A DNA stretch of 32,000 nucleotides from Erysipelothrix inopinata (GTDB lineage: Bacteria > Bacillota_I > Bacilli_A > Erysipelotrichales > Erysipelotrichaceae), in assembly GCF_014396165.1 (NCBI RefSeq), contig NZ_CP060715.1:1470001-1502000 (forward strand). Direction: 5' to 3'. The notes beneath the pieces were generated by a model that saw nothing but the letters and a program-made list of their open reading frames with translations, was not told where the DNA came from and did no database searches. Position numbers and translations under genes: made by a program. Numbering within the stretch: the first letter of the stretch is position 1; every line of letters starts with the position of its first letter. This document shows, piece after piece, positions 14,070 to 31,646 of the stretch.

Positions 14070-15047
14070 TTACTGGTTAAGTTCTTCAAGAAATGCATCA
14101 AAGAGTTCAAGGCGACGCTTGAGATATCCCGTATCCTCACGTTTAGGGTGGATACGATTCGTTAGAATAATAAAGCCTGCTTGATTATCCAAGTCTAATA
14201 AAATTGAAGGACCCGTGAATCCAGTGTGGAAGAGATAGTTCTTACCTTTATAGGGATGAAGATTCCATCCGTATGAACGCATATCAACATTGGTTTCGTT
14301 GAGTAATTTTAAAGTTTCTTGGGTGAGTACAGGTGTTTCATAGCCCAAGTATGATTTTACGAATTGCTTGAGATCCGACATGGTACTGAATAAACCAGCA
14401 TTTCCTGCTACGCCACCAAAGTTGTGGGCAGTCTCATCATGAACTACACCGCAAATAAGACCGCGTGCATCAGTATATTCTGTTGGGACACAGCGACTTG
14501 TATCACTTGGATTGTACTGAGTATCCGACATGTGAAGAGGGTTTAATATTGTTTTAGAAATTGATTGATCTAAAGATGTATCGAGAGCTTCAATGACCAG
14601 TCCTAAAATAAGATAGTTAATGCATGAATAGTCCATTTTTGTGTCTACAGGGTTTACCCAGTCATCACAATTCATGATTGAAGCAACCATTTCATCATGA
14701 TTCATGGTGTAACGCCCACGAACGCTTGGCAACATACCTGAACGGTGTAAAAGACAATGTTGTATGAGAATGCTTTCTTCTTTAAACTCTGGAAGAATAT
14801 CTTTAATGGGTGTATCAAATGAAAGTTTCCCTTCTTCGATTAACTGAAGGATACGTGTGGTAGTAAACATTTTGGTAAGCGATGCGATATCATAAACCGC
14901 ATTATTTTGTAACGGTGTATCAGGGTATTTTGAAAGCCCATAGACATCAGTGAGAGACTCTTCTTTAGTAATAATACCGATAGCTATACCCGGGATAAGT
15001 TTTTCGTTGACGCTTTGATGAGCAAGATTAATTACAGATTCAAACAT
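14070..15047 (-). CDS. Beta-lactamase-fold serine hydrolase (class C / PBP4*-esterase-like)
   Basis: SxxK motif ASLTKMF near the N-terminus, a Y-x-N-like YSCINY, and a C-terminal HTGFTG (KTG-like) box. Confidence 0.8.
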   Translation of the reverse strand: MFESVINLAHQSVNEKLIPGIAIGIITKEESLTDVYGLSKYPDTPLQNNAVYDIASLTKMFTTTRILQLIEEGKLSFDTPIKDILPEFKEESILIQHCLLHRSGMLPSVRGRYTMNHDEMVASIMNCDDWVNPVDTKMDYSCINYLILGLVIEALDTSLDQSISKTILNPLHMSDTQYNPSDTSRCVPTEYTDARGLICGVVHDETAHNFGGVAGNAGLFSTMSDLKQFVKSYLGYETPVLTQETLKLLNETNVDMRSYGWNLHPYKGKNYLFHTGFTGPSILLDLDNQAGFIILTNRIHPKREDTGYLKRRLELFDAFLEELNQ

Positions 15048-18354: not shown

Positions 18355-20991
18355 TTATTCTGAACGCAAAGCAATCACAGGATCTTGTTTTGCCGCTTTT
18401 GAAGAAGGGATAAGTCCTGCAAGCATTGATAAGAATATCGAAATGAGGACAAGGATAACACCTGCTTGCCATGGCAGAGAAGCAATACCTGCAACACCAG
18501 AAAGAGATTCGATGATGGCATTAATTGGAATCAGCAAGAGTAATGTTATTCCAATTCCAAAACCTCCTGACAAGAATCCTAGGATTAATGTTTCGGCATT
18601 AAAGATACTGGAAATATTTCGTTTGGAAGCACCGATACTTCTAAGAATTCCAATTTCTTTTGTTCTTTCAAGAACTGAAATATAAGTAATAATTCCAATC
18701 ATGATGGAAGAAACAATTAATGAAATGGCTACAAATCCAACAAGGACATAGGTAATCATATTAATAATTACAGAAACAGAAGACATCATGAGACCCGCAA
18801 TATCTGTATAATTAAGTGTTAGATTTTCATTGCCTTGCTCAATTTGTTTGTTATTGTACGTTTTAATAATGGATTCAATTTCGTCTTTGGCTTTAAAGTC
18901 TTTAGGATAAAGATTAATTGAAGAAGGTTTATCAAGATCTACAACACCCAGTTTGGCTAAGTTGCCGTCGTATGTTTCGATTTCTTGTTGTGAAGCTTGC
19001 ATTTGTTTACTTACCATATCAATGACTTGTGCTTCTGACATTGAGGCGGTGAGTTGTGCAAATTGCATTTGTTCTTGCTCTGACAAGGTTTTTGTCCAGT
19101 CTCGAACTTGTTCAATGGTGAGTGTTTCAGTATAGTTCTCAATATCAAAAGGAAGGCCTGTGAAGACGTTTGTATCTTTATTTTCCTTTTGTTCTTTGAC
19201 GATTTCCGTATCATTGATTTTATTGATAACATGTTCCGTGAGTGTATGATTATAAGCTATTGTACCATTTAGTGATTGTGCACTCGATTCAGGATTGGGT
19301 CTTAAAATACCGACAACCTTAATATCCATAGCGTTCTCAATGACGGGTTTCATAAAGTTTAAATCCTCATGTTTATCAACCCATTTATTTGCTTGTTGAT
19401 CAAAACTGTAGATATCTGTATTTAGAACTAATTTAAATTTTGTTGCTAATATTTCATCGTATGAAAATGATTTTTGTTCGCTTTCTTTAGCCTTTTGATC
19501 GGTAGCGAGAGCATTCACAATTTCTTTATACTCTTTTTGATCCATAAGCCCTAATGAATAAAGAACCATGTCACTAATTTCATTGTTTTTATCAACAACA
19601 AGAACAACTTCGTCATGAGCATTTTGATCAGGGAATCGACCTGCCAATACATCGTATTGCGCTCCAAGGAGTTCAGGATTATCAATCATTTCTTGAAATA
19701 CTTGAGATGACATCATACCTGAAAGACCCGGTACATTTGGACCGGATTGTCCTTGTTGTAACATGGCACTCGGATTCACCTTGAGGTTATCATCGGCTTG
19801 GCTGCTATAGATTTGTAAATCAAGGTTGTAACCTGTTTGGATGGCAGTAACGTGTTTGTCGATGCCCGTATCTTCTTCTTTGAGGTATTTAAGAAATTGA
19901 GCTAAATCGTTTTGTTTCTTTTGCTCCGTCATGGTTGTCATCATGTTTGTCGCAATATTATTGGAATAGACCTGAGAAAGATCATGCTCAATGTCATTTT
20001 TATTATTTTGATCCATCATTGTCGTCATCATTGTTGTGAGATCAATGCTTTCACTTTCTATAGATATCGGATAACTCGATAATGTGTCTTTTTGAACATT
20101 ATCGATATATTGATTGACACCATTTGATAAAGATAAAATGAGTGCAATTCCGATAATTCCAATACTTCCTGCAAATGCTGTTAGGAATGTTCGTGCTTTT
20201 TTTGTACGAAGATTATTGAAACTCAGGGTGAGGGCTGTAACGAAAGACATTGAAGCTTTACCGAGGTTTTGGTGAATGGCTTCTTCAGCATGACTTTCAT
20301 CAAGTTCAAGAGGATTGGAGTCACTCAAAATGACACCGTCACGAAGATTTACAATACGGTTTGCGTAATCATCAGCCAATTCAGGGTTGTGAGTAACCAT
20401 GATGACAAGTTTGTCATTAGCTACTTCTTGAAGTAATTTCATAACTTGGATACTGGTTTCGGTATCTAAAGCACCTGTAGGCTCGTCAGCAAGTAAAATA
20501 TCGGGGTCATTAACAAGCGCTCTAGCAATCGCAACGCGTTGCATTTGACCTCCAGACATTTGATTTGGTTTTTTATGAAGTTGATCGCCCAAACCTACTT
20601 TTGTGAGGACATCAGTCGCACGTTGACGTCGTTCAGATTTTGAGATTCCGGATATGGTTAAGGCAAGCTCGACGTTTGCGAGGATGCTTTGATGAGGGAT
20701 TAAATTGTAAGATTGAAAAACAAATCCGACCGAATGATTTCGATACGAATCCCAATCGCGATCGTGATATTTCTTCGTTGAAATACCGTTAATAATGAGA
20801 TCACCATGATCGTAGCGATCCAAACCACCAACAATATTAAGTAGGGTAGTTTTTCCCGAACCACTGGGTCCAAGAATTGCGACAAACTCGTTATCTCTAA
20901 AATTGAGGCTGACGTCATTCAAGGCAACTTGAATTAAATCACCAGTTTTATATTGCTTATATATATTCTTTATTTGTAGCATATAAGTCAC
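18355..20991 (-). CDS. Fused ABC ATP-binding protein + FtsX-family permease (MacB-type) with a very large extracytoplasmic domain
   Basis: aa 1-225: Walker A GPSGSGKTT, signature MSGGQMQR, Walker B LLADEPTGALD. TM1 at about aa 268-289. A hydrophilic domain of about 450 aa follows. The C-terminal FtsX module has three TM helices (aa about 741-863). Confidence 0.88.
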   Translation of the reverse strand: MTYMLQIKNIYKQYKTGDLIQVALNDVSLNFRDNEFVAILGPSGSGKTTLLNIVGGLDRYDHGDLIINGISTKKYHDRDWDSYRNHSVGFVFQSYNLIPHQSILANVELALTISGISKSERRQRATDVLTKVGLGDQLHKKPNQMSGGQMQRVAIARALVNDPDILLADEPTGALDTETSIQVMKLLQEVANDKLVIMVTHNPELADDYANRIVNLRDGVILSDSNPLELDESHAEEAIHQNLGKASMSFVTALTLSFNNLRTKKARTFLTAFAGSIGIIGIALILSLSNGVNQYIDNVQKDTLSSYPISIESESIDLTTMMTTMMDQNNKNDIEHDLSQVYSNNIATNMMTTMTEQKKQNDLAQFLKYLKEEDTGIDKHVTAIQTGYNLDLQIYSSQADDNLKVNPSAMLQQGQSGPNVPGLSGMMSSQVFQEMIDNPELLGAQYDVLAGRFPDQNAHDEVVLVVDKNNEISDMVLYSLGLMDQKEYKEIVNALATDQKAKESEQKSFSYDEILATKFKLVLNTDIYSFDQQANKWVDKHEDLNFMKPVIENAMDIKVVGILRPNPESSAQSLNGTIAYNHTLTEHVINKINDTEIVKEQKENKDTNVFTGLPFDIENYTETLTIEQVRDWTKTLSEQEQMQFAQLTASMSEAQVIDMVSKQMQASQQEIETYDGNLAKLGVVDLDKPSSINLYPKDFKAKDEIESIIKTYNNKQIEQGNENLTLNYTDIAGLMMSSVSVIINMITYVLVGFVAISLIVSSIMIGIITYISVLERTKEIGILRSIGASKRNISSIFNAETLILGFLSGGFGIGITLLLLIPINAIIESLSGVAGIASLPWQAGVILVLISIFLSMLAGLIPSSKAAKQDPVIALRSE

Positions 20992-21110
20992 CTTTCCTAT
21001 TTTATATCCCCATTATATCTTTATTTGATAAACTGAATGTTAACTTTCAATAACTTCTGTTAATGCTCAGTTTATATTCTATGATATCATGAAAGTATGG
21101 AGGTGATCTG

Positions 21111-21785
21111 ATGTTTAGAATATTAATTGTAGAAGATAATAAAAATACGTCACGATTGATGAAGGCATTACTAGAACATGCGGGTTACGAAACAGAAGTA
21201 GCTTACAATGGGGTAGAGGGATTCGAGGTTTTAGATCGAATACATATTGATTTAATTTTATTGGATGTCATGATGCCCGTAATGGATGGCTATGAATTTA
21301 CTGATCAACTTCGCAAAAGTAATGACAATGTTCCCATTTTGATGGTAACAGCGAAGCATCTTCCAGAGGAAAAATGTCGCGGATTTTTGGTAGGGACGGA
21401 TGACTATATGATTAAACCTGTTAATGAAGAAGAGTTATTATTAAGAATAAAAGCACTGTTGAGACGTTCTCAGATTGCCAATGAGCACCGACTTAGTATT
21501 GGGAATGTTATTTTAGATTATGATGGTCTGACGGTATCTAGAGGCGATGAAATTCAAACCTTGCCAGAAAAAGAGTTTTACCTCTTATACAAATTATTAT
21601 CGTATCCAAATCAGATTTTCACAAGAATTCAACTGATGGATGAGATATGGGGAAAAGATTCGGAGAGTGTTGACACCACCGTAAATGTTCATATTAATCG
21701 ATTAAGAAAACGATTTGAAAATTACGATGAATTTGAAATTGTTGCGATTCGAGGTTTAGGATATAAAGCGGTACGAAATCGATGA
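21111..21785 (+). CDS. OmpR/PhoB-family response regulator
   Basis: Receiver domain (ILIVEDN, LILLDVMMPVMDG, TAK) and winged-helix output (TVNVHINRLRKRF). ATGA overlap with the kinase gene. Confidence 0.92.
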   Translation: MFRILIVEDNKNTSRLMKALLEHAGYETEVAYNGVEGFEVLDRIHIDLILLDVMMPVMDGYEFTDQLRKSNDNVPILMVTAKHLPEEKCRGFLVGTDDYMIKPVNEEELLLRIKALLRRSQIANEHRLSIGNVILDYDGLTVSRGDEIQTLPEKEFYLLYKLLSYPNQIFTRIQLMDEIWGKDSESVDTTVNVHINRLRKRFENYDEFEIVAIRGLGYKAVRNR

Positions 21786-22818
21786 GAAGCAAAAGGAAAT
21801 TTCGAAATAATTTTGAACTCATCGTATTCTTTGTCTTGGTAGTATTTGTTATCTTAGTCTTAACCATGGCATTAATTATGACTGGAATGAAAGTCCTAGA
21901 GATGATGGGATACACCGAATCACAGTTTACACATGCACCGGTACTTGTCTTTTCTGTCGCAACAATTATCGTAGGGTCAACAGTAGCGGCCATTGTGAGT
22001 CATATTCCTTTAGCGCCACTCCAAGAGGTTATTGCTGCCACAAAGAGGTTTGCTAAAGGAGACTTTTCAGCAAGAATTAATCTTAAGGGTCCAAAAGAAC
22101 TCAAGCAATTAAGCGATAGTTTTAATGAGATGGGAAAAGCATTGGGAAGTATAGAACTTCTTAGAAACGATTTTGTTAATAACTTCTCCCACGAATTCAA
22201 GACGCCGATTGTATCCATTCGCGGGTTTGCGAAAATGCTTCGTGATAATCCTGATCTAACAGATGCAGAAAAACAAGAATACCTTGAAATTATTATTAAT
22301 GAATCAGAGAGACTCTCTGAATTATCGTCAAGTGTCCTCAATCTATCTCAAGTAGAAACACAAACGGTACTTAAGGACATAAAACGGGTTAACATAACCG
22401 AACAAATGCGACTCATTCTTGTTCTACTAGAAAAACGTTGGCAAGATAAAAATCTTGATATTCATTTAGAGGCTGAAGAAGTCGAGGCCGAGGTAAATGA
22501 GGAATTAATGCAACAGGTTTTTATTAACCTCATCGATAATGCCATCAAGTTTTCCGATAGAGGAACCGAATTGAAACTTGAAATCTTTGAAGGGATTCAA
22601 GAAATTAAAATTAGTATCACGAATGAGGGGAAACAATCTCAAAAGAAGATCAACGTCGTGTATTTGATAAGTTTTATCAAGGAGATGGATCTCATGCTAC
22701 CAAAGGAAATGGCCTCGGACTGAGTTTAGTTCAAAAAATAATTGATCTCCATCAAGGAAGCATTACTATTCGTTCGGGAAATGGACAAACAACCTTCACA
22801 ATATTTCTTCCAAAGTAA
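21782..22818 (+). pseudogene. Intramembrane-sensing histidine kinase (BceS-like architecture), interrupted by a 1-nt frameshift
   Basis: Two TM helices with a short loop, a HAMP-like segment, H-box FSHEFKTPI and N-box NLIDNAIKFS lie in the frame of 21782. The G1/G2 boxes (DKFYQGD, GNGLGLSLVQKIIDLHQGSITI) lie in the adjacent frame, which is open from 22627 to the TAA at 22816-22818. The frames switch at the G4 run 22627-22630. Confidence 0.8.
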
Positions 22819-22849
22819 AAATTGTATGATAAATTGATGAATATTATTA

Positions 22850-22865
22850 TATTATTCGAATAATA
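22850..22865. promoter_or_regulatory. Perfect 16-bp palindrome upstream of the ABC exporter operon
   Basis: TATTATTCGAATAATA read directly. Its centre is about 45 bp upstream of the TATAAT at 22901-22906. Confidence 0.4.
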
Positions 22866-22877
22866 CAGTGACACACC

Positions 22878-22906
22878 TATGAATTTCTCTCAAAATCCGC
22901 TATAAT
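22878..22906 (+). promoter_or_regulatory. Promoter of the ABC exporter operon (consensus -10, poor -35)
   Basis: TATAAT at 22901-22906. The hexamer 17 nt upstream is TATGAA, a poor -35 that suggests activator dependence. Confidence 0.5.
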
Positions 22907-22927
22907 CTAAAAAAAGAGGAGATTTAT

Positions 22928-23626
22928 ATGTTACAAATTCAGAGTTTACACAAAAAGTATAACCAGGTCGTAGCGGTCGACCATGTAAGTTTTAACGCAT
23001 ACGACGGTGAAGTAACTGTAATTTTGGGTCCGAATGGGGCGGGTAAATCCACAATTATTAAATCCGTAGCCGGATTGTTGCGTTATGAGGGAGAAATCTT
23101 TATTAATGGCAAAAAGGCTTCAGAGATTGAAGCTAAGAAAGAGTTTTCCTATGTTCCTGAAATACCTGCAATGTATCCGTTATTAACGGTTCGCGAACAT
23201 TTAATCTTTACAAGTAGAGCTTATGGAATCACCGATAATGATGATGAAATCGATGCCCTGATGCAACGATTTGAATTACAAGATAAACAAGAAAAATATG
23301 GTGATGAACTTTCAAAAGGGATGATGCAAAAAGTAAGTATTTGCTCAGCGCTTTTAACGCATCCAAATGTAATTGTTTTGGATGAACCAATGGTTGGATT
23401 GGATCCAAAAGCTATCAAAGAACTGAAACGTGTGATGAAAGAATTAAAAGAATCAGGTGTTACTGTCATTATTAGTACCCATATGATTGAAATGGTTGAA
23501 GACGTTTGGGATAAGGTGATTGTGATGGAAACAGGTAAAATTCGTGCAGAAATTGCGAAGAATGATTATCCTGATGAAGATCTCGAAACACTCTTCTTTA
23601 AGATAACGGGTGAAACCTATGAATAA
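22928..23626 (+). CDS. ABC transporter ATP-binding protein (ABC-2/DrrA-like subfamily)
   Basis: Walker A GPNGAGKST, signature LSKGMMQKV, Walker B IVLDEPMVGLD. SD GAGGAG lies before ATG 22928. Confidence 0.9.
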   Translation: MLQIQSLHKKYNQVVAVDHVSFNAYDGEVTVILGPNGAGKSTIIKSVAGLLRYEGEIFINGKKASEIEAKKEFSYVPEIPAMYPLLTVREHLIFTSRAYGITDNDDEIDALMQRFELQDKQEKYGDELSKGMMQKVSICSALLTHPNVIVLDEPMVGLDPKAIKELKRVMKELKESGVTVIISTHMIEMVEDVWDKVIVMETGKIRAEIAKNDYPDEDLETLFFKITGETYE

Positions 23627-25217
23627 TGGTTTGTTGTACCTATGTCAGATGAATGTCAAGAATCGTTTCAAAAAACTGATTCGCAAACCTTTAAAGTTAA
23701 TTGCGACGATTGTTGGTGTTCTATATTTTATTATGATTCCCTTTTTCTTTAAATCATCAATCGATCAGTTAAATATGAATAATCAGCACAGTTTTGGATT
23801 GATTATCCTCTTGTTCACAATTTATCTGTCTACACCCGGATACTTATCGTATCTAAAAAGAAAAGGAATTGTTTTTACAAATGCTGATGTTCATTTTCTA
23901 TTTTCAGCACCTGTCTCATCAAAACAAATTATTTTTTATGGTCTCAGTAAGACATACTATCTTCAAGTTATTTATGAGATTGCTCTAATCGTGGCAGCAT
24001 TATTCTTATTTAATGTATCGGCACTGCCTTTATTACTGTATGTGCTCAGTATTTTCATTTTTGAAATTCCAATGTCATACTCGCTAGCACTCATTATGTA
24101 TGCCGATGAAAAAATAAGTCTTACTGCTAAGAAGGTTATTCGCTATACAGCATATGCGTTTCTTCTAATCTTTACAGCTTTATCTGCTTACTATATCTAC
24201 GCTAATGGAATCTCTGTACAAAGCGTAATTGAAGTATTTCAACTGCCACTCATCTTGCTCTTCCCAATTATTGGATGGCAAGCATGTTTAATTCAACTTC
24301 TATTCTGGGGACCGACAAATGTAAATATCGTTGGAACCGTGTTGTTCTTTATTTTCGGATTGATTTCAATAGTTTATGCTTATCGTATGAAAGTTAACGG
24401 CGAATACTACGAAGAAGCACAAGATTTTGCCTTAGACTATGAAAAGAAGATGGCCAAAGCAAAGAAAAATGCGCCGTTGTCCGAACAAATGGGCAAACGA
24501 AAAATTCTCAAAGCCAATCGTGAAATTACGAGTTTAAAGAGCCGTGCTATCTTAGATAAGGAACTTCTTGAGAACAGAAGAACACGTCGTACATTCGTGA
24601 AGATCTCAGATTTAGTTCTTGCAATAATCGGAGGTTTTGTAGGTTATTTCCTCAAAGACTCGCTAGCTGAATTTGGAACTGAAGAAACATTTATATTCTT
24701 TGGCGTTATTGTTGGAATTATTATGTATATTAATGCTTTCTTTACACATTCGAATTTTTGGCAAAAAGAAGCGGAGCACTTTACTTTTTTCCTTATTCCG
24801 GATACGATGATAAGTAAGTTGTTCTTTGCATCATCATTGGATTTATTAAGTGCATTAACTCGTACATTTGCGCTTGTTCTTCCACTGATGGTAATATCAA
24901 GAGTGCCGCTTGTCTATGGTATGATGGGGATCTTACTGGCGTTAAGTTTACTTGTTTTTGAAATTTATTTAAGAATGGGATTAAGTGAGTTTCTAACTCA
25001 AAAAGTTGGTACCATTTTTGCACAGTTTATATATATGTTCTTATCAATCATACTGTGTGCAGTACCTGTCGGATTATGGGGATTAATGACATGGTTTACA
25101 GCAATGCCTACCTTAGTAGGAGTCTTATTAACAGTTTTAAGTTATTTTGGACTCGCATACTTTGGGTTGTGGATTGCATCAAAAACAATATTACATACGC
25201 AATTGGAAGATAACTAG
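23610..25217 (+). CDS. Polytopic membrane protein, putative ABC exporter permease partner
   Basis: About 10-12 hydrophobic helices split by a charged cytoplasmic segment (EYYEEAQDFALDYEKKMAKAKKNAP...). It overlaps the ATPase gene. The start is GTG 23610 or ATG 23619 (ATGAATAA overlap). The family recollection (putative ABC exporter) is uncertain. Confidence 0.7.
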   Translation: MKPMNNGLLYLCQMNVKNRFKKLIRKPLKLIATIVGVLYFIMIPFFFKSSIDQLNMNNQHSFGLIILLFTIYLSTPGYLSYLKRKGIVFTNADVHFLFSAPVSSKQIIFYGLSKTYYLQVIYEIALIVAALFLFNVSALPLLLYVLSIFIFEIPMSYSLALIMYADEKISLTAKKVIRYTAYAFLLIFTALSAYYIYANGISVQSVIEVFQLPLILLFPIIGWQACLIQLLFWGPTNVNIVGTVLFFIFGLISIVYAYRMKVNGEYYEEAQDFALDYEKKMAKAKKNAPLSEQMGKRKILKANREITSLKSRAILDKELLENRRTRRTFVKISDLVLAIIGGFVGYFLKDSLAEFGTEETFIFFGVIVGIIMYINAFFTHSNFWQKEAEHFTFFLIPDTMISKLFFASSLDLLSALTRTFALVLPLMVISRVPLVYGMMGILLALSLLVFEIYLRMGLSEFLTQKVGTIFAQFIYMFLSIILCAVPVGLWGLMTWFTAMPTLVGVLLTVLSYFGLAYFGLWIASKTILHTQLEDN

Positions 25218-26226: not shown

Positions 26227-26266
26227 AAATACCGTAAATTCCAATTGGAGTTTCGGTATTTTTTTG
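26227..26266 (+). terminator. Rho-independent terminator of the ABC exporter operon
   Basis: AAATACCG (26227-26234) / CGGTATTT (26254-26261), with extended imperfect pairing inside, followed by TTTTTG. Confidence 0.75.
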
Positions 26267-26355
26267 TTTTAGATACTTCAAACTTATTTGGTTCAATGAA
26301 TGGAAATAAAGTACAATAGTATTATAGAAAGTACCTGATTAGAGAGGACGTTAAT

Positions 26356-27252
26356 ATGAAACCAAAATATTCTGATGAGTATTGGAAACGCATTTATCTA
26401 GTCCAAGATTATATCGAAAAACATCCAACAGAAATATTTACAGTTGAAAATTTGGCTCAAATATCTGGGTTATCACAATATCACTTTCACCGAATCTTCA
26501 AGGCTTTGACTCAGGAAACGATTTATGAGTTTGTGACACGGACAAATATGGAATGGGCTCTAGGAATGTTGTTGCATCGTCAAGATTTATCGATTACCGA
26601 TATCGCGTATGAACTCGGGTATAGTGACTCAGCAGTTTTTTCGCGTTCGTTTAAACGGTACTATGATATGAGTCCTCGAAAAATACGCAGTGAGGATAGC
26701 AAGAATCGCAAAGTTATCGTAAAACCAAGAATCTATAATGAGGGTGTAGATGAAGTGGAAGTGAAACCAATTCTTATTGAACATAAGATAATTAAACCAC
26801 TGAAGCTCATTTACCAAAGAAAAATTGGTTCTTACAGTCAACTAGAATCTTATGGTGATGTTATTCAACATTTATTTTCAATTGCTCTTAATGGAAATAT
26901 ACTGAATGAAAACTCAAAGCCAGTTACGATTTATCACTCAAGTCCTGAAATATCAGAAACTGAAAATCAAAGAACGACATTTGGTTTATTTGTAAAAGAA
27001 ACAACGAAAGGTGTACCTCGTGACGATGTATCCGTAATGACATTGGATGAAAGTGAATATGCAGTGCTAAGTTTTGAATTGGACCTTGATGAATATCCGG
27101 CAGCTTGGAATTATATCTATGAATCATGGCTTGGAGAAAGTGGTTATTTACCAAGGAATGCGCCACCCTTCGAAGTTTATAAAAATAATCCATTAGAACA
27201 TCCTCTTGGTAAACATCTTGTTGATATTTATATTCCTGTAACAACCTATTAG
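26356..27252 (+). CDS. AraC-family transcriptional regulator with a C-terminal GyrI-like (SbmC/BmrR-type) ligand-binding domain
   Basis: N-terminal double HTH (LAQISGLSQYHFHRIFKALT ... IAYELGYSDSAVFSRSFKRYYDMSP). A C-terminal domain of about 165 aa ends ...PFEVYKNNP...HLVDIYIPV, typical of GyrI-like domains. Confidence 0.85.
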   Translation: MKPKYSDEYWKRIYLVQDYIEKHPTEIFTVENLAQISGLSQYHFHRIFKALTQETIYEFVTRTNMEWALGMLLHRQDLSITDIAYELGYSDSAVFSRSFKRYYDMSPRKIRSEDSKNRKVIVKPRIYNEGVDEVEVKPILIEHKIIKPLKLIYQRKIGSYSQLESYGDVIQHLFSIALNGNILNENSKPVTIYHSSPEISETENQRTTFGLFVKETTKGVPRDDVSVMTLDESEYAVLSFELDLDEYPAAWNYIYESWLGESGYLPRNAPPFEVYKNNPLEHPLGKHLVDIYIPVTTY

Positions 27253-27273
27253 TTTCTTAGAAAAGAGGGAAAC

Positions 27274-29559
27274 ATGAATAAAATTCGTATAAGAAATGCC
27301 CACAATAATAACTTGAAACATCTCGATGTTGATGTTCCTAAAGAAGAACTCATTGTCATTACAGGTGTTAGTGGTTCGGGAAAGTCGAGTTTGGCTTTTG
27401 ATTTAATCTTTGAAGAAGGACGTAAAAAATATCTCCAATCAATTGGGATGGGACTCGATTTTGGAGAGCAGTCCTACTCTGAAATTTCAGGTTTAAGTCC
27501 TACGGTTGCTGTAAAACAAAATATAATTCGTCAAAGTAACCCACGATCGACTGTCGGATCACGAACTGGGGTTCTAAATCTTCTGACGCTTCTTTATTCT
27601 CATGAAGGCACCGGGCAGGACATAGTGGAGGGAGAACCTATAGATCCGAGCACTTTCAGTTATTTAACGCCACAAGGAATGTGTTTTGATTGTGGCGGTA
27701 AGGGCGAGGTATATCGTATTCATTTGGATAAAATAATTACAGACGATGTAATGACTCTTGAGGATGTGTTTATTAAGATAGGTTCAACACCAGGATATCT
27801 TAATTTACTGAAACGAAATTACCCAGAGGCATATCATTTACCCTTTACATCTTTAAGTGAAGATTTACAAGATACCTTGATTTATGGAGCCTACAATAAT
27901 ACTACAGGTAAAACGAGCTACTGTATTGAAAGAGTACTCCAAAATCGCTACTTAAGAAATGAAGATGTGAGTGCCTACTATACCTTAGAAACGTGTAACA
28001 CGTGTCAAGGATATCGAATCGGTGAAGAGGCACAACATGTGCTCATCAATGGGAAACACATTGGAGAACTGGCACAAATGCAACTTTCAAACTTGGCACT
28101 ATTTTTGGAAGAACTTAAGAAATATAAGCGTGTCTCTGATTTTGGAATCGAACTTATTAGCACAATTCTTAAAGTGCTTGATTCACTGATTGACATTAAG
28201 TTAGGTCACCTCAGTTTATATCGTGAAATGCGAACCTTGAGTGGTGGGGAGTTACAACGCCTGTTTCTCCATGATCATTTAAACTCAGAGTTGAGTTCTC
28301 TTATCTATATTTTTGACGAACCGACCAGCGGACTTCACGAATCAGAAAAACAATCTATCAGTAACGCCATGCACCGCCTGAAATCACTTGGAAACACAGT
28401 GATTATCGTGACTCATGATCCTTACATAATTAAACAGGCAGAACACATCATTGATATTGGACCTAAAGCTGGATCTCTGGGAGGTGAAATTATCTTTCAG
28501 GGAACATATGATGATTTCTTAAATAACCATGAATCTCTCACAGCTCAATATTTAACAAAAAATCTCTTTCATTTACAAACTAAACGTCACCAGTCACATT
28601 CTTATTTAAAACTCAAGAATGTTTCGACATTCAATCTAAAGAATTTGGATGTTGAGTTACCATTGAACCAAGTCGTTGGTATTGCTGGGATCTCTGGAAG
28701 CGGTAAAAGTTCACTTATATCTAAAACACTCGTACCGAGAGTTAAGGATGCACTCAATACAAATGAAAAATCTCGCGTTGAAGGGATTGAAGGTTTGTCT
28801 AATGTGCTTGAAATTACGCAAGCACCCATTGGTCGCAAGTCAAACTCTAATCCCATTACATATTTAGGTATTTGGGATAAGGTGAGGTCGCTTTATGCAC
28901 AACAAGCGTCATCCAAAAAGCGACATTATCAAGCAGGAGACTTCTCATTTAATTCAAAAGGGGCATGTCCTGATTGTAATGGTTCAGGAGTCGAAACTAT
29001 TAATATTGGATACGACATTCAATTTGAGAAGAAATGTCCCACCTGTCTTGGAACTCGTTATCGAGAAGAAATACTAGAAGTTACCTATAATGAAAAAAAT
29101 ATCAATGATGTACTTAATTTAAGTGTTGATGAAGCCCTTGAATTTCTTAAAGAAAGCAAACTGAATCTCAAGGCCTTGGAAATTCTAAGTAAAATTGGAA
29201 TGGGTTATATAAAGTTAGGACAGTCAACTGCAACACTTTCAGGCGGCGAGGCACAGCGTATTAAACTTGCCAAAGAAATTGGAAAAGTTAATACAGGAAA
29301 AACACTTTATGTGCTTGATGAACCGTCAACAGGACTTAGTTACTATGATATTGAGAAGCTTCTGATTCTTATTGAAGAACTCATTGCGAAAGGAAACTCA
29401 GTCATCATTATTGAGCACGACCTCACAATTCTAAGAGCATGTGATTGGATAGTAGAACTTGGACCCGAGAGTGGCGACAAGGGTGGTTATATCATTGCCG
29501 AAGGCACCGTAGATTCTCTAAAAAACAATGATATTTCTAAGACGGGACGGTATTTGTAA
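27274..29559 (+). CDS. UvrA-like ABC ATPase, short paralogue (class II UvrA / UvrA2-DrrC-like)
   Basis: Two Walker A motifs (GVSGSGKSS, GISGSGKSS), two signatures (LSGGELQR, LSGGEAQR), and Cys pairs of zinc modules (CFDCGGKG, CNTCQGY, CPDCNGSG...CPTCLGTRY). It is 761 aa. Canonical UvrA is about 940 aa from memory. Confidence 0.85.
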   Translation: MNKIRIRNAHNNNLKHLDVDVPKEELIVITGVSGSGKSSLAFDLIFEEGRKKYLQSIGMGLDFGEQSYSEISGLSPTVAVKQNIIRQSNPRSTVGSRTGVLNLLTLLYSHEGTGQDIVEGEPIDPSTFSYLTPQGMCFDCGGKGEVYRIHLDKIITDDVMTLEDVFIKIGSTPGYLNLLKRNYPEAYHLPFTSLSEDLQDTLIYGAYNNTTGKTSYCIERVLQNRYLRNEDVSAYYTLETCNTCQGYRIGEEAQHVLINGKHIGELAQMQLSNLALFLEELKKYKRVSDFGIELISTILKVLDSLIDIKLGHLSLYREMRTLSGGELQRLFLHDHLNSELSSLIYIFDEPTSGLHESEKQSISNAMHRLKSLGNTVIIVTHDPYIIKQAEHIIDIGPKAGSLGGEIIFQGTYDDFLNNHESLTAQYLTKNLFHLQTKRHQSHSYLKLKNVSTFNLKNLDVELPLNQVVGIAGISGSGKSSLISKTLVPRVKDALNTNEKSRVEGIEGLSNVLEITQAPIGRKSNSNPITYLGIWDKVRSLYAQQASSKKRHYQAGDFSFNSKGACPDCNGSGVETINIGYDIQFEKKCPTCLGTRYREEILEVTYNEKNINDVLNLSVDEALEFLKESKLNLKALEILSKIGMGYIKLGQSTATLSGGEAQRIKLAKEIGKVNTGKTLYVLDEPSTGLSYYDIEKLLILIEELIAKGNSVIIIEHDLTILRACDWIVELGPESGDKGGYIIAEGTVDSLKNNDISKTGRYL

Positions 29560-30518
29560 TGAAACAAAATGCGCAGTATTGGGACAATATTACCAAAACG
29601 ATACAATCACAGTATTCAAATATCAGAGGAATATCCGTGGTTTATAATAATGAAACAGTATATGAACAGTTCTTTAAAACAAGAGCTCCCGAACAAAAAT
29701 TCAACGTTGCTTCGGTTACAAAAAGCATTGTATCTTTGCTAATTGGGATTGCAATTGATCAAGGCCATATTCCAAGTATTGATGATAAGGTTATGACTTA
29801 TTTTCCAGAGTATCACTTTAATGACACGAACCGTATACGTGATAGCATTACGATAAAAAATCTCTTAACCATGACGGCACCGTATCCTTTCCCTGCATGG
29901 AATGAACCATTTCTACGAATGGCAAGAAGTGAAGATTGGGTCGAATACTCACTGGGTACTCTTGGTAAAGGATGCCGTGTCGGTACTTTTAAATACTCTA
30001 CATCGGGAACACATATCTTATCCGCACTGCTGACTAAAGCTACCGGAATGAGTGCTCGCGAATATGCAAATCAAAATTTGTTTAAACCTATTGGTATTGA
30101 GGAAATTCCTCTATACCCCATGAAATTCGACCAAGAACATATTTTCGGTAACAAAGTTAGAGGTTGGGTAAGTGATCCATTGGGCTATTCTACAGGTGGT
30201 TGGGGACTTAATTTAAGCATTTCTGATATGGTGAAAATCGGGCAGTTATGTTTGCAAAGAGGCGTTTGGAATCAAAAACGAATCGTCAGTGAATCGTGGA
30301 TTTTAGAATCGACGACTACAGATAAAAACAACTATGGATACTTATGGTGGATAGGTGATCGAGAACGTGAGTATATTGCAACTGGATCTGGAGGGAATAT
30401 CATTTACGTAAATGAACCTGATAACCTAATAATTGCGATAGCATCAACAATCATCTCGAGACCAAAAGATCGCAAATATCTTGTGGAAGATATTAGAACG
30501 TTACTGGAATTAAAGTAA
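29559..30518 (+). CDS. Beta-lactamase-fold serine hydrolase
   Basis: SxxK motif ASVTKSI and a YSTSG (Y-x-S/N-like) motif. TAATG overlap with the UvrA-like stop codon (29557-29561). Confidence 0.8.
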   Translation: MKQNAQYWDNITKTIQSQYSNIRGISVVYNNETVYEQFFKTRAPEQKFNVASVTKSIVSLLIGIAIDQGHIPSIDDKVMTYFPEYHFNDTNRIRDSITIKNLLTMTAPYPFPAWNEPFLRMARSEDWVEYSLGTLGKGCRVGTFKYSTSGTHILSALLTKATGMSAREYANQNLFKPIGIEEIPLYPMKFDQEHIFGNKVRGWVSDPLGYSTGGWGLNLSISDMVKIGQLCLQRGVWNQKRIVSESWILESTTTDKNNYGYLWWIGDREREYIATGSGGNIIYVNEPDNLIIAIASTIISRPKDRKYLVEDIRTLLELK

Positions 30519-30536: not shown

Positions 30537-30572
30537 AAACCAGGGTTCATCCATTTGAATTCTGGTTTTTTA
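30537..30572 (+). terminator. Rho-independent terminator
   Basis: AAACCAG (30537-30543) / CTGGTTT (30562-30568) with inner GTTCA/TGAAT pairing, followed by a T-run. Confidence 0.7.
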
Positions 30573-30668
30573 TTATTGGTGTGATTCTGAAAGTCACGTG
30601 ATAATTATCAAATATAATAATTGATATGATAAAATGAAGATACGCTGGTCGTGAAAGGAATACTTAAT

Positions 30669-30992
30669 ATGAATTCAATTACAATTTCAACACTTCAAGA
30701 ATATTTGAAAACAAAATATGATAATCCACAATATACAAACTCGCTGTTTATGAAACTTGTCGAGGAAGTTGGCGAGGTTGCGGAAGCCATTAATAAAATT
30801 GATGGAAGAAAAGCAGACGATGGACTGAGTTCACTTTCAGAAGAATTGGTCGATGTCATTCACTATGCTGTGGCGATAGCGACAATTAATGATATCGACC
30901 TTGAACAAGTCATGATTGAAAAAGACAAGAAAGCAAGTGTAAAATATCATCAATTTCCTAATCTTCAAGACTATTTAAATAATGAAAAATAA
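30669..30992 (+). CDS. MazG-like nucleoside triphosphate pyrophosphohydrolase (small all-alpha type)
   Basis: EEVGEVAEAI and EELVDVIHYAVAIA motifs (EExxE...ExxD). Start set at ATG 30669 rather than the track GTG at 30651. Confidence 0.75.
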   Translation: MNSITISTLQEYLKTKYDNPQYTNSLFMKLVEEVGEVAEAINKIDGRKADDGLSSLSEELVDVIHYAVAIATINDIDLEQVMIEKDKKASVKYHQFPNLQDYLNNEK

Positions 30993-31010
30993 AAGAAGAG
31001 AGGAATTACG

Positions 31011-31646
31011 ATGACTACGATACTAGTACATGGATTAGGTCAAAATCAACAAGCATGGAATGAAGTGATTCGTTTGCTTAATTTCAATGATGATATTATG
31101 GTTCCTCAACTTAACAATTTTGAAATTTCAGGGCCATTAACTTATGAAAAACTTTACGGGGAATTTTGCGCATTGTGTCATCGAGAATCATCGATAAATC
31201 TATGTGGTTTGTCATTAGGGGCAATACTTTGTTTAAATTATGCTATAGATTATCCGGAAAACGTTAATTCTTTAACTGTAATTGCTCCACAGTATAAAAT
31301 ACCAAAAGGACTCTTCAAAGTTCAAAATATGATTTTCAAGCTGTTACCAAAATCCGCATTTACAAAAATGGGTTTCTCGAAAACAGAGACACTTTCACTC
31401 GTCAACTCAATGGTTGATATTGATTTTACCGACCAATTGAAACGTATCAGTTGTCCTACACTTATCATGTGTGGTGCTAAAGATAATGCAAATATCAAAG
31501 CTGCGAAATCATTGCATGAATTGATACAAGACTCAATTTATGAAGAAATTAAGAATTCAAAACATGAAGTAAATATTGATAATCCTAGTGGACTTGCAAA
31601 CCAATTGAATGAATTTATAGATAAGAACTTAAGTCATAAAATCTAA
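31011..31646 (+). CDS. Alpha/beta-fold hydrolase
   Basis: HGLGQN oxyanion region, nucleophile elbow GLSLGA, C-terminal SKHEVN histidine. SD AGAGAGGAA lies upstream. Confidence 0.8.
   Translation: MTTILVHGLGQNQQAWNEVIRLLNFNDDIMVPQLNNFEISGPLTYEKLYGEFCALCHRESSINLCGLSLGAILCLNYAIDYPENVNSLTVIAPQYKIPKGLFKVQNMIFKLLPKSAFTKMGFSKTETLSLVNSMVDIDFTDQLKRISCPTLIMCGAKDNANIKAAKSLHELIQDSIYEEIKNSKHEVNIDNPSGLANQLNEFIDKNLSHKI

Follow-up and report, generated by a model that had tools for sequence, protein, structure and literature searches.

The UvrA-like proteins Ecm16 and DrrC have class II features and confer resistance to DNA intercalators, echinomycin and daunorubicin, respectively (PMC9328131, PMC10192343). 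Ecm16 acts independently of nucleotide excision repair (NER) and depends on its own ATPase and on its insertion domain, which is needed for DNA binding (PMC9328131, PMC10192343). Gene clusters that specify DNA-binding compounds also repeatedly contain UvrA-like genes (PMC6804068, PMC10413001), and for class II UvrA proteins of bacteria other than antibiotic producers, the role is recognized as an open question (PMC9328131). Here we describe a three-gene operon from Erysipelothrix inopinata that encodes an AraC-type regulator with a GyrI-like domain, a short UvrA paralogue, and a serine hydrolase of the beta-lactamase fold (Table 1). The operon lies in a 32,000-nucleotide (nt) stretch of contig NZ_CP060715.1 (positions 1,470,001 to 1,502,000), hereafter the window. 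The UvrA paralogue and the hydrolase each match NCBI entries of this species with 100% identity. Comparison with relatives in other genomes shows this locus to be a real and conserved variation on the resistance theme known from class II UvrA proteins, one that has apparently not been described before.

Ecm16, DrrC, MtrX, CmrX, TioU, and SnorO (class II(a)) have lost the UvrB-binding domain and zinc module 1 and have kept zinc modules 2 and 3, two ATP-binding cassette (ABC) ATPase modules, and the insertion domain. Alignment of the E. inopinata paralogue with the 958-residue UvrA from Bacillus revealed the same pattern. One block of 133 residues is gone after residue 118 (Bacillus residues 125–257), and this block comprises the UvrB-binding domain together with zinc module 1. 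Alignments to the structures 3pih and 2r6f likewise jump from about residue 128 and skip residues ∼132–262, so that none of the three alignments contains an intact UvrB-binding domain. An initial annotation of this DNA had placed a deficit of about 180 residues in the UvrB-binding domain, the insertion domain, or both. The first part of this proposal holds; the insertion domain is shortened (6 + 7 + 14 residues fewer than in Bacillus UvrA) but present, as approximately 100 residues with predicted local distance difference test (pLDDT) values of 79–92 separate C140 from C241, the two halves of zinc module 2. The remaining difference in length lies in short loops and at the C-terminal tail. Since the UvrB-binding domain is absent, the protein is predicted to be incapable of starting excision repair.

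The zinc-binding cysteines had been described as conserved, which is correct for module 2 (C137, C140, C241, C244) and module 3 (C565, C568, C588, C591), both invariant among 24 members of the clade defined below, but not for module 1: residues 1–136 contain no cysteine at all. Relatives from Clostridioides difficile, Paenibacillus (P. dendrobii), and archaea carry a compact CxxC...CxxC motif at the position of module 1. The predicted retention of both ATPase modules was borne out in full, with Walker A, signature, Walker B, and H-loop motifs invariant across the clade in module 1 (G31-S39, S323-R329, D348-P350, H381-D382) as well as in module 2 (G472-S479, S656-R662, D682-P684, E714-H715). 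The paralogue scores below the NCBIfam equivalog cutoffs for UvrA (714 versus 1147 bits for NF001503; 710 versus 729.8 bits for TIGR00630), and this score together with the missing UvrB-binding domain separates it from class I, the canonical UvrA of NER. The domain losses, zinc modules 2 and 3, both ATPase modules, and the insertion domain instead agree with the published description of class II (PMC9328131, PMC10192343). An AlphaFold2 (AF2) model (pLDDT 85.6) found UvrA2 from Deinococcus radiodurans (2vf7/2vf8), a protein with the same class II domain composition and 34% sequence identity, as its top structural match (2vf7, template modeling (TM) score 0.83). The model also superposes on Ecm16 with a TM score of 0.88 on the target and a root-mean-square deviation of 3.9 Å.

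The main new result is the recurrence of these genes in other genomes. We defined the clade as the relatives at 41–60% identity that group with the E. inopinata protein in a tree, apart from class I UvrA, a class II protein from Enterococcus, and an archaeal sister group. This clade was represented by 18 lineages: the window, an Erysipelothrix metagenome-assembled genome (MAG), Desnuesiella, an uncultured Firmicute, Isobaculum, Clostridium hydrogenum, a cut contig, Paenibacillus dendrobii, P. plantiphilus, Cohnella, Vallitalea, Listeria monocytogenes, C. difficile, a sortase-bearing Gram-positive bacterium, a Chloroflexi MAG, a gammaproteobacterial Granulosicoccaceae MAG, and two metagenome contigs. 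Across Firmicutes, Chloroflexi, and a gammaproteobacterium, the gene that comes next downstream of the UvrA gene is the hydrolase gene in every one of these 18 lineages, and no UvrA of the clade was seen without it. Eight of 11 measured junctions are overlaps of 1 nt or 4 nt or have zero gap, and further loci are equally tight. A hydrolase neighbor was not found at six class II UvrA genes outside the clade (33–36% identity). An AraC-GyrI gene adjoins the pair in about two-thirds of the lineages (11 loci besides the window), in one of them downstream of the pair, with the three genes still together. The regulator in the Granulosicoccaceae MAG is a divergent AraC-cupin protein, and some loci have no adjacent regulator. 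One metagenome contig (L097, 1598–7323) shows the order AraC-GyrI, GNAT acetyltransferase, UvrA, hydrolase. The idea of a three-part module therefore needs to be narrowed, because it is the UvrA–hydrolase pair, not the triad, that forms the invariant unit. The synteny in relatives that the annotation had asked for is nevertheless found, and since the three-gene arrangement recurs in unrelated genomes, it exceeds chance. We found no publication describing this arrangement, in agreement with the earlier impression that it is new, although the coverage of journals was incomplete; likewise, a search for literature on uvrA or uvrB in Erysipelothrix, on UvrA paralogues in C. difficile, or on such paralogues in connection with drug tolerance in the gut returned nothing relevant.

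Within the genus, close orthologues were found only in E. inopinata and one Erysipelothrix MAG, and the next match is 61% identical. The gene thus appears to be accessory within Erysipelothrix. A plasmid search returned a best match of 36% identity and gave no sign of plasmid carriage for the clade. Scanning metagenomes with the clade alignment, which contains generic Walker and signature patterns, recovered mostly class I UvrA and at least two new clade members among the matches listed.

The flanks of the pair vary. A gene for a histidine phosphatase (His_Phos_1) lies directly upstream of it in the Chloroflexi locus (L094, 4100–8533) and in one contig (L096, 3468–7391), and an insertion sequence (IS) element with an rve transposase lies just upstream at L093 (3610–4751). 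The triad of L. monocytogenes (L081, 3348–9751) is flanked by a TRAM/tRNA-U5 methyltransferase gene and a gene for a 133-residue protein of the glyoxalase family; this site may resemble the lmo1703/fosX region, in which case the triad would be a strain-variable insertion. In C. difficile (L082, 9558–11640) the triad is directly followed by a MerR-family regulator and a transporter of the major facilitator superfamily (MFS), a second pair of the drug-sensing and efflux type. Outside the clade, the distant class II UvrA gene of Enterococcus rivorum (35% identity; L078, 4472–8250) lacks the hydrolase; upstream of it are genes for a divergent WYL regulator and for a GNAT acetyltransferase. The archaeal sister proteins from an uncultured archaeon and a Promethearchaeota MAG (L008, 3605–8505; L009, 4918–9598) also lack the hydrolase and are flanked by BtrH_N/DUF4872 (peptidase C39-like) genes, a distinct recurring partnership of class II UvrA.

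Open reading frame calls and RNA folding agree with the operon as first annotated, that is, three genes on the plus strand with a 21-nt gap, a TAATG overlap, and two flanking terminators. The spacer between the regulator and UvrA genes contains an AGAGGG Shine–Dalgarno motif and no significant hairpin on folding; the stop codon of the UvrA gene and the start codon of the hydrolase gene share the TAATG. Both boundary hairpins have a folding energy of −16.1 kcal/mol (z = −5.36 on the 5′ side and −5.45 on the 3′ side), are followed by U-runs, and were matched in stability by none of 200 shuffled sequences. The upstream terminator is kept at an orthologous locus with 87% identity (L001), as is a promoter-proximal block (TATTTGGTTCAATGAAT..AAAGTACAATAGTA) whose flanks diverge there. 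The candidate promoter, TTGGTT-N18-TACAAT, is likewise conserved in L001; a consensus scan did not flag it. A direct repeat of AAAGTAC (26308, 26328) was considered as an operator and dropped because its second copy is not conserved in L001.

Table 1. Features of the operon and of related two-gene modules. Positions refer to the window, or to the locus named.
Feature	Locus	Position	Strand	Remarks
AraC-GyrI regulator gene	window	26356-27252	+	298 aa; operon gene 1
Class II UvrA paralogue gene	window	27274-29559	+	761 aa; operon gene 2
PF00144 serine hydrolase gene	window	29559-30518	+	319 aa; operon gene 3
5′ boundary, intrinsic terminator of the gene upstream	window	26227-26266	+	inverted repeat 26227-26237/26251-26261, then T-run
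Intrinsic terminator, 3′ boundary of the operon	window	30537-30572	+	terminator scan: 13-bp stem and T-run
Candidate sigma-A promoter, TTGGTT-N18-TACAAT	window	26288-26317	+	read from the sequence
MerR-GyrI + hydrolase module	L086/L087	4165-5999		
MerR-GyrI + hydrolase module	L088	4089-6023		
MerR-GyrI + hydrolase module	L090	4163-6023		

The hydrolase matches PF00144 (3.3e-25), and its presumed catalytic residues, S52-V-T-K55 (Ser-x-x-Lys) and Y146 in a Y-S-T motif, are invariant or nearly so. The strand equivalent to the third motif of the fold (KTG/HxG; K/H-T/S-G) bears a conserved G276-x-G278-G279 (GSGG/GDGG). The sequence contains no signal peptide. A Foldseek search with the AF2 model (pLDDT 90.4) identified the penicillin-binding-protein-like esterase Lsa45 (8dc1, TM 0.80, 23% identity) as the best match, followed by PIB-1, the 6-aminohexanoate-dimer hydrolase NylB, EstG, and macrolactin acyltransferase. 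These proteins and EH7, like EstG a family VIII esterase, share the fold (TM 0.70–0.80) and the Ser-x-x-Lys and Tyr core with the hydrolase, and comprise esterases, amidases, and acyltransferases. The E. inopinata protein differs from them by an identity of at most 23%, its shorter length, its predicted cytoplasmic location, the Y-S-T form of its Tyr motif, and a glycine-rich segment, GSGG/GDGG, in place of KTG/HxG. It reaches at most 20.5 bits against the NCBIfam beta-lactamase families, whose cutoffs are 415–882 bits, and is not a class C beta-lactamase proper. From these features we assign it as a cytoplasmic, class-C-related serine hydrolase of the S12/family VIII type, the catalytic type being clear. 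A second beta-lactamase-fold gene in the window (14070–15047, minus strand, 324 residues, PF00144 with 141 bits) is unrelated to it (21% identity over 68 residues) and was discarded as a paralogue.

The regulator has a double AraC-type helix-turn-helix (HTH; PF12833, 1.9e-20; PF00165, 1.4e-19 in two stretches) and a GyrI-like domain at the C-terminus (PF06445, 4.7e-28), all above the gathering cutoffs and in agreement with the AraC/XylS-GyrI architecture. It is RobA-like over residues 18–279, where it scores 47 bits against a NCBIfam RobA cutoff of 380. The nearest solved chain is 7R3W (STM3175/YgiV), although this match covers only the DNA-binding domain (residues 6–113). The regulator shares with Rob and STM3175/YgiV (AraC-GyrI) and with BmrR and EcmrR (MerR-GyrI) an N-terminal double HTH along with a GyrI-like ligand domain at the C-terminus, and differs from them in that it heads an operon that it presumably controls. 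Albicidin, a gyrase poison, is a ligand of the GyrI domain in STM3175/YgiV, and the ligands of GyrI-like regulators are chemically diverse (PMC10414762).

Two further settings of the hydrolase are informative. Bacillus subtilis, Lysinibacillus sphaericus, and Paenibacillus elgii contain two-gene modules of a MerR-GyrI regulator and a hydrolase of the same family, with gaps of 4–33 nt and no UvrA gene. These modules, which appear to be uncharacterized, differ from the operon in the MerR DNA-binding domain of the regulator and in the absence of UvrA. Their hydrolases are 46–51% identical to that of the operon and nest within the UvrA-linked ones in a tree. Therefore, as judged from these sequences, the hydrolase pairs with GyrI-type sensors whatever their DNA-binding domain and is predicted to act without UvrA. 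We make no claim that the AraC-linked and MerR-linked regulators have a common sensor domain, as their GyrI domains are only 25–28% identical. In P. dendrobii (L077, 5–10659), the UvrA–hydrolase pair is embedded in a trans-acyltransferase-like polyketide synthase (PKS) cluster, between a terminal ketosynthase–acyl carrier protein–thioesterase (KS-ACP-TE) module and a free-standing acyltransferase (AT), with a dehydratase/ketoreductase (DH/KR) module upstream (order DH-KR; KS-ACP-TE; UvrA; hydrolase; AT). Self-resistance genes are typically located inside biosynthetic clusters such as these, and this one member of the clade resembles Ecm16 and DrrC in occupying the position of a self-resistance gene.

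With middling confidence we read the operon as a self-contained, sensor-controlled, probably autoregulated xenobiotic-response system against a DNA-binding small molecule, one that would both protect the target and inactivate the drug. An aromatic, drug-like compound would bind to the regulator's GyrI-like domain, and the regulator would then activate the promoter upstream of its own gene; since this promoter precedes the regulator gene, all three genes would rise together. The UvrA paralogue, by analogy to Ecm16 and DrrC, would recognize drug-distorted DNA and release the drug with the help of ATP. The hydrolase, made in step with UvrA because the stop and start codons overlap, would cleave an ester or amide of the compound, or acylate it, so that the drug could not rebind. 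Where producers "displace and export", as DrrC does with DrrAB, the operon would "displace and destroy". These steps of ligand binding, autoregulation, displacement, and hydrolysis are modeled on Ecm16 and DrrC, on the UvrA-like genes in gene clusters, and on GyrI sensors such as STM3175. The linkage across phyla, the permuted gene order, the variant with a GNAT acetyltransferase, the copy in the PKS cluster, and the occurrence of GyrI regulator and hydrolase without UvrA all support a xenobiotic-response function. In contrast to Ecm16 and DrrC, which are paired with efflux genes, the UvrA of this clade invariably has a serine hydrolase gene behind it, occurs in non-producers as part of a compact accessory operon that usually includes an AraC-GyrI sensor, and has an insertion domain about 27 residues shorter.

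Several observations weigh against this assignment. We know of no ligand, induction, or resistance phenotype for any member of the clade, and among the compounds that trigger GyrI-like regulators are also some without affinity for DNA. The paralogue is 36–41% identical to class I UvrA and just 30% identical to Ecm16, and it scores higher with class I UvrA from Thermotoga (589 bits) than with D. radiodurans UvrA2 (472 bits) or Ecm16 (373 bits). By these measures it belongs to a separate clade, with no close relationship to DrrC or Ecm16. Because the hydrolase works without UvrA in other genomes, its substrate need not be bound to DNA, and the low identity of the GyrI domains between AraC-linked and MerR-linked regulators gives no indication of a common ligand. 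The PKS-embedded hydrolase carries S-V-T-Q in place of S-V-T-K, and with its catalytic lysine replaced by glutamine this copy may be inactive or have another role. The operon itself holds no biosynthetic cluster and no efflux gene, the window holds no biosynthetic genes, and a location inside a biosynthetic gene cluster for a DNA-binding compound, typical of Ecm16 and DrrC, is approached only by the P. dendrobii relative. Finally, no role in drug resistance has been demonstrated for class II UvrA from Deinococcus, Xanthomonas, or Pseudomonas, and deletion of UvrA2 in D. radiodurans causes no ultraviolet (UV) phenotype (PMC9328131).

The same data could be explained by a closer partnership, in which UvrA and hydrolase form a physical complex on DNA and the hydrolase replaces UvrB and UvrC as recruited effector, cleaving a ligand, a covalent adduct, or a DNA–peptide link in situ; this would be repair without excision, directed by a sensor of the UvrA type. 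We regard such a complex as unlikely, although the absence of any clade UvrA without a hydrolase would fit, the near-universal overlap or zero gap at the junction suggests a fixed stoichiometry, and the domain that was lost is exactly the one that recruits UvrB. The corresponding evolutionary scheme, in which the short UvrA swapped UvrB for the hydrolase and, having found a drug or adduct on DNA, hands it over to the hydrolase or activates this enzyme, is equally improbable in our view; it would amount to an excision-free clearing of DNA-bound ligands by two proteins, the ligands possibly including covalent peptide or polyketide adducts. The occurrence of the hydrolase family behind MerR-GyrI regulators shows an enzyme that is not dependent on UvrA, and among the best 150 matches from 1.84 billion representatives we found no UvrA–hydrolase fusion: most of these matches are duplicated UvrA proteins of 1,600–1,900 residues, and none has a length near 1,090, which makes the search uninformative on this point. 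The independence of the hydrolase could also mean that this enzyme is the center of the system and, controlled by the GyrI sensor, detoxifies an aromatic ester or amide unrelated to DNA, such as an antibiotic, a plant metabolite, or a bile-derived compound, with UvrA in a non-DNA or generally protective role. The stand-alone modules in Bacillus, Lysinibacillus, and Paenibacillus, the varied esters and amides on which relatives of the hydrolase act, and the diverse ligands of GyrI-like regulators (PMC10414762) point in this direction. We nevertheless consider this quite unlikely, as it leaves the obligate tie between the UvrA clade and the hydrolase unexplained, and the paralogue retains zinc modules 2 and 3, the insertion domain, and the signature domains in a model that superposes on DNA-bound UvrA structures.

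Even more doubtful is a role for the paralogue as a back-up or specialized sensor of DNA damage, active in stress-induced repair or mutagenesis as proposed for UvrA2 of Pseudomonas putida and Xanthomonas, with its neighbors as mere passengers. Class II UvrA proteins do contribute slightly to UV survival or stationary-phase mutagenesis in several bacteria (PMC9328131), and in sequence identity class I UvrA matches the paralogue as well as any class II protein does. However, mere passengers are made unlikely by the neighbor conserved across phyla (18 of 18 lineages), the permuted gene order, and the overlap of stop and start codons, and the lack of a UvrB-binding domain, the absence of uvrB, uvrC, or a LexA-type context from the window, and the accessory nature of the gene within the genus do not fit such a sensor. 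An antiphage module related to MADS, in which mad3 and mad8 are UvrA-like ATPases, is highly improbable. The C-terminal ABC module of the paralogue does match the PADLOC models for mad3 (4.2e-60, 202 bits) and mad8 (90 bits), and the 202-bit match indicates that mad3 corresponds to one half of a UvrA-family protein. However, MADS comprises eight genes, of which MAD6–8 are mandatory and MAD3 accessory (bioRxiv 10.1101/2023.03.30.534895); PADLOC gave no match for either the regulator or the hydrolase, neither a methyltransferase nor further mad genes occur nearby in the window, and a small-molecule sensor would be ill-suited to control phage defense. With matches to mad3 and mad8 at the domain level and no mad6–mad8 operon, we rejected membership in MADS. 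The mad3 match covers positions 28609–29556 of the window, corresponding to residues 446–760 of the UvrA paralogue.

If the operon does defend against DNA-binding compounds, it would represent an unrecognized determinant of resistance to DNA-binding antibiotics and chemotherapeutics in gut and food-borne Firmicutes. For the role of class II UvrA outside producers, the clade offers a concrete and testable answer: a dedicated hydrolase is always present and a drug-sensor regulator usually so, and this combination indicates a defense that joins target protection to drug inactivation. With C. difficile and L. monocytogenes among its carriers, the operon is open to genetics and drug panels at once, and a positive result would make the Paenibacillus PKS cluster that holds the pair a lead to the natural ligand. 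If, on the other hand, UvrA hands its ligands over to the hydrolase, these two pathogens would possess an excision-free clearing system.

The operon is surrounded in the window by genes for ABC exporters, a two-component system, a MazG-like protein, and an alpha/beta-hydrolase. The latter two, a MazG-like pyrophosphohydrolase of 113 residues and an alpha/beta-hydrolase of 211 residues, lie downstream (30651–31646) and are probably not part of the operon unit, because the close Erysipelothrix relative was the only one of the loci searched to contain them. On the longer contig of locus L085 (14664–17828), they are followed by genes for a double ATPase of the ABC-F-like type and for a MutS2-like (MutS_V) protein. 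Upstream of the operon (18355–25217), a fused ABC-FtsX protein is encoded together with a two-component system, followed by an ABC ATPase and a PF16962 protein ("putative ABC exporter"). With these genes of the export and resistance type, the operon is located in an export-rich neighborhood.

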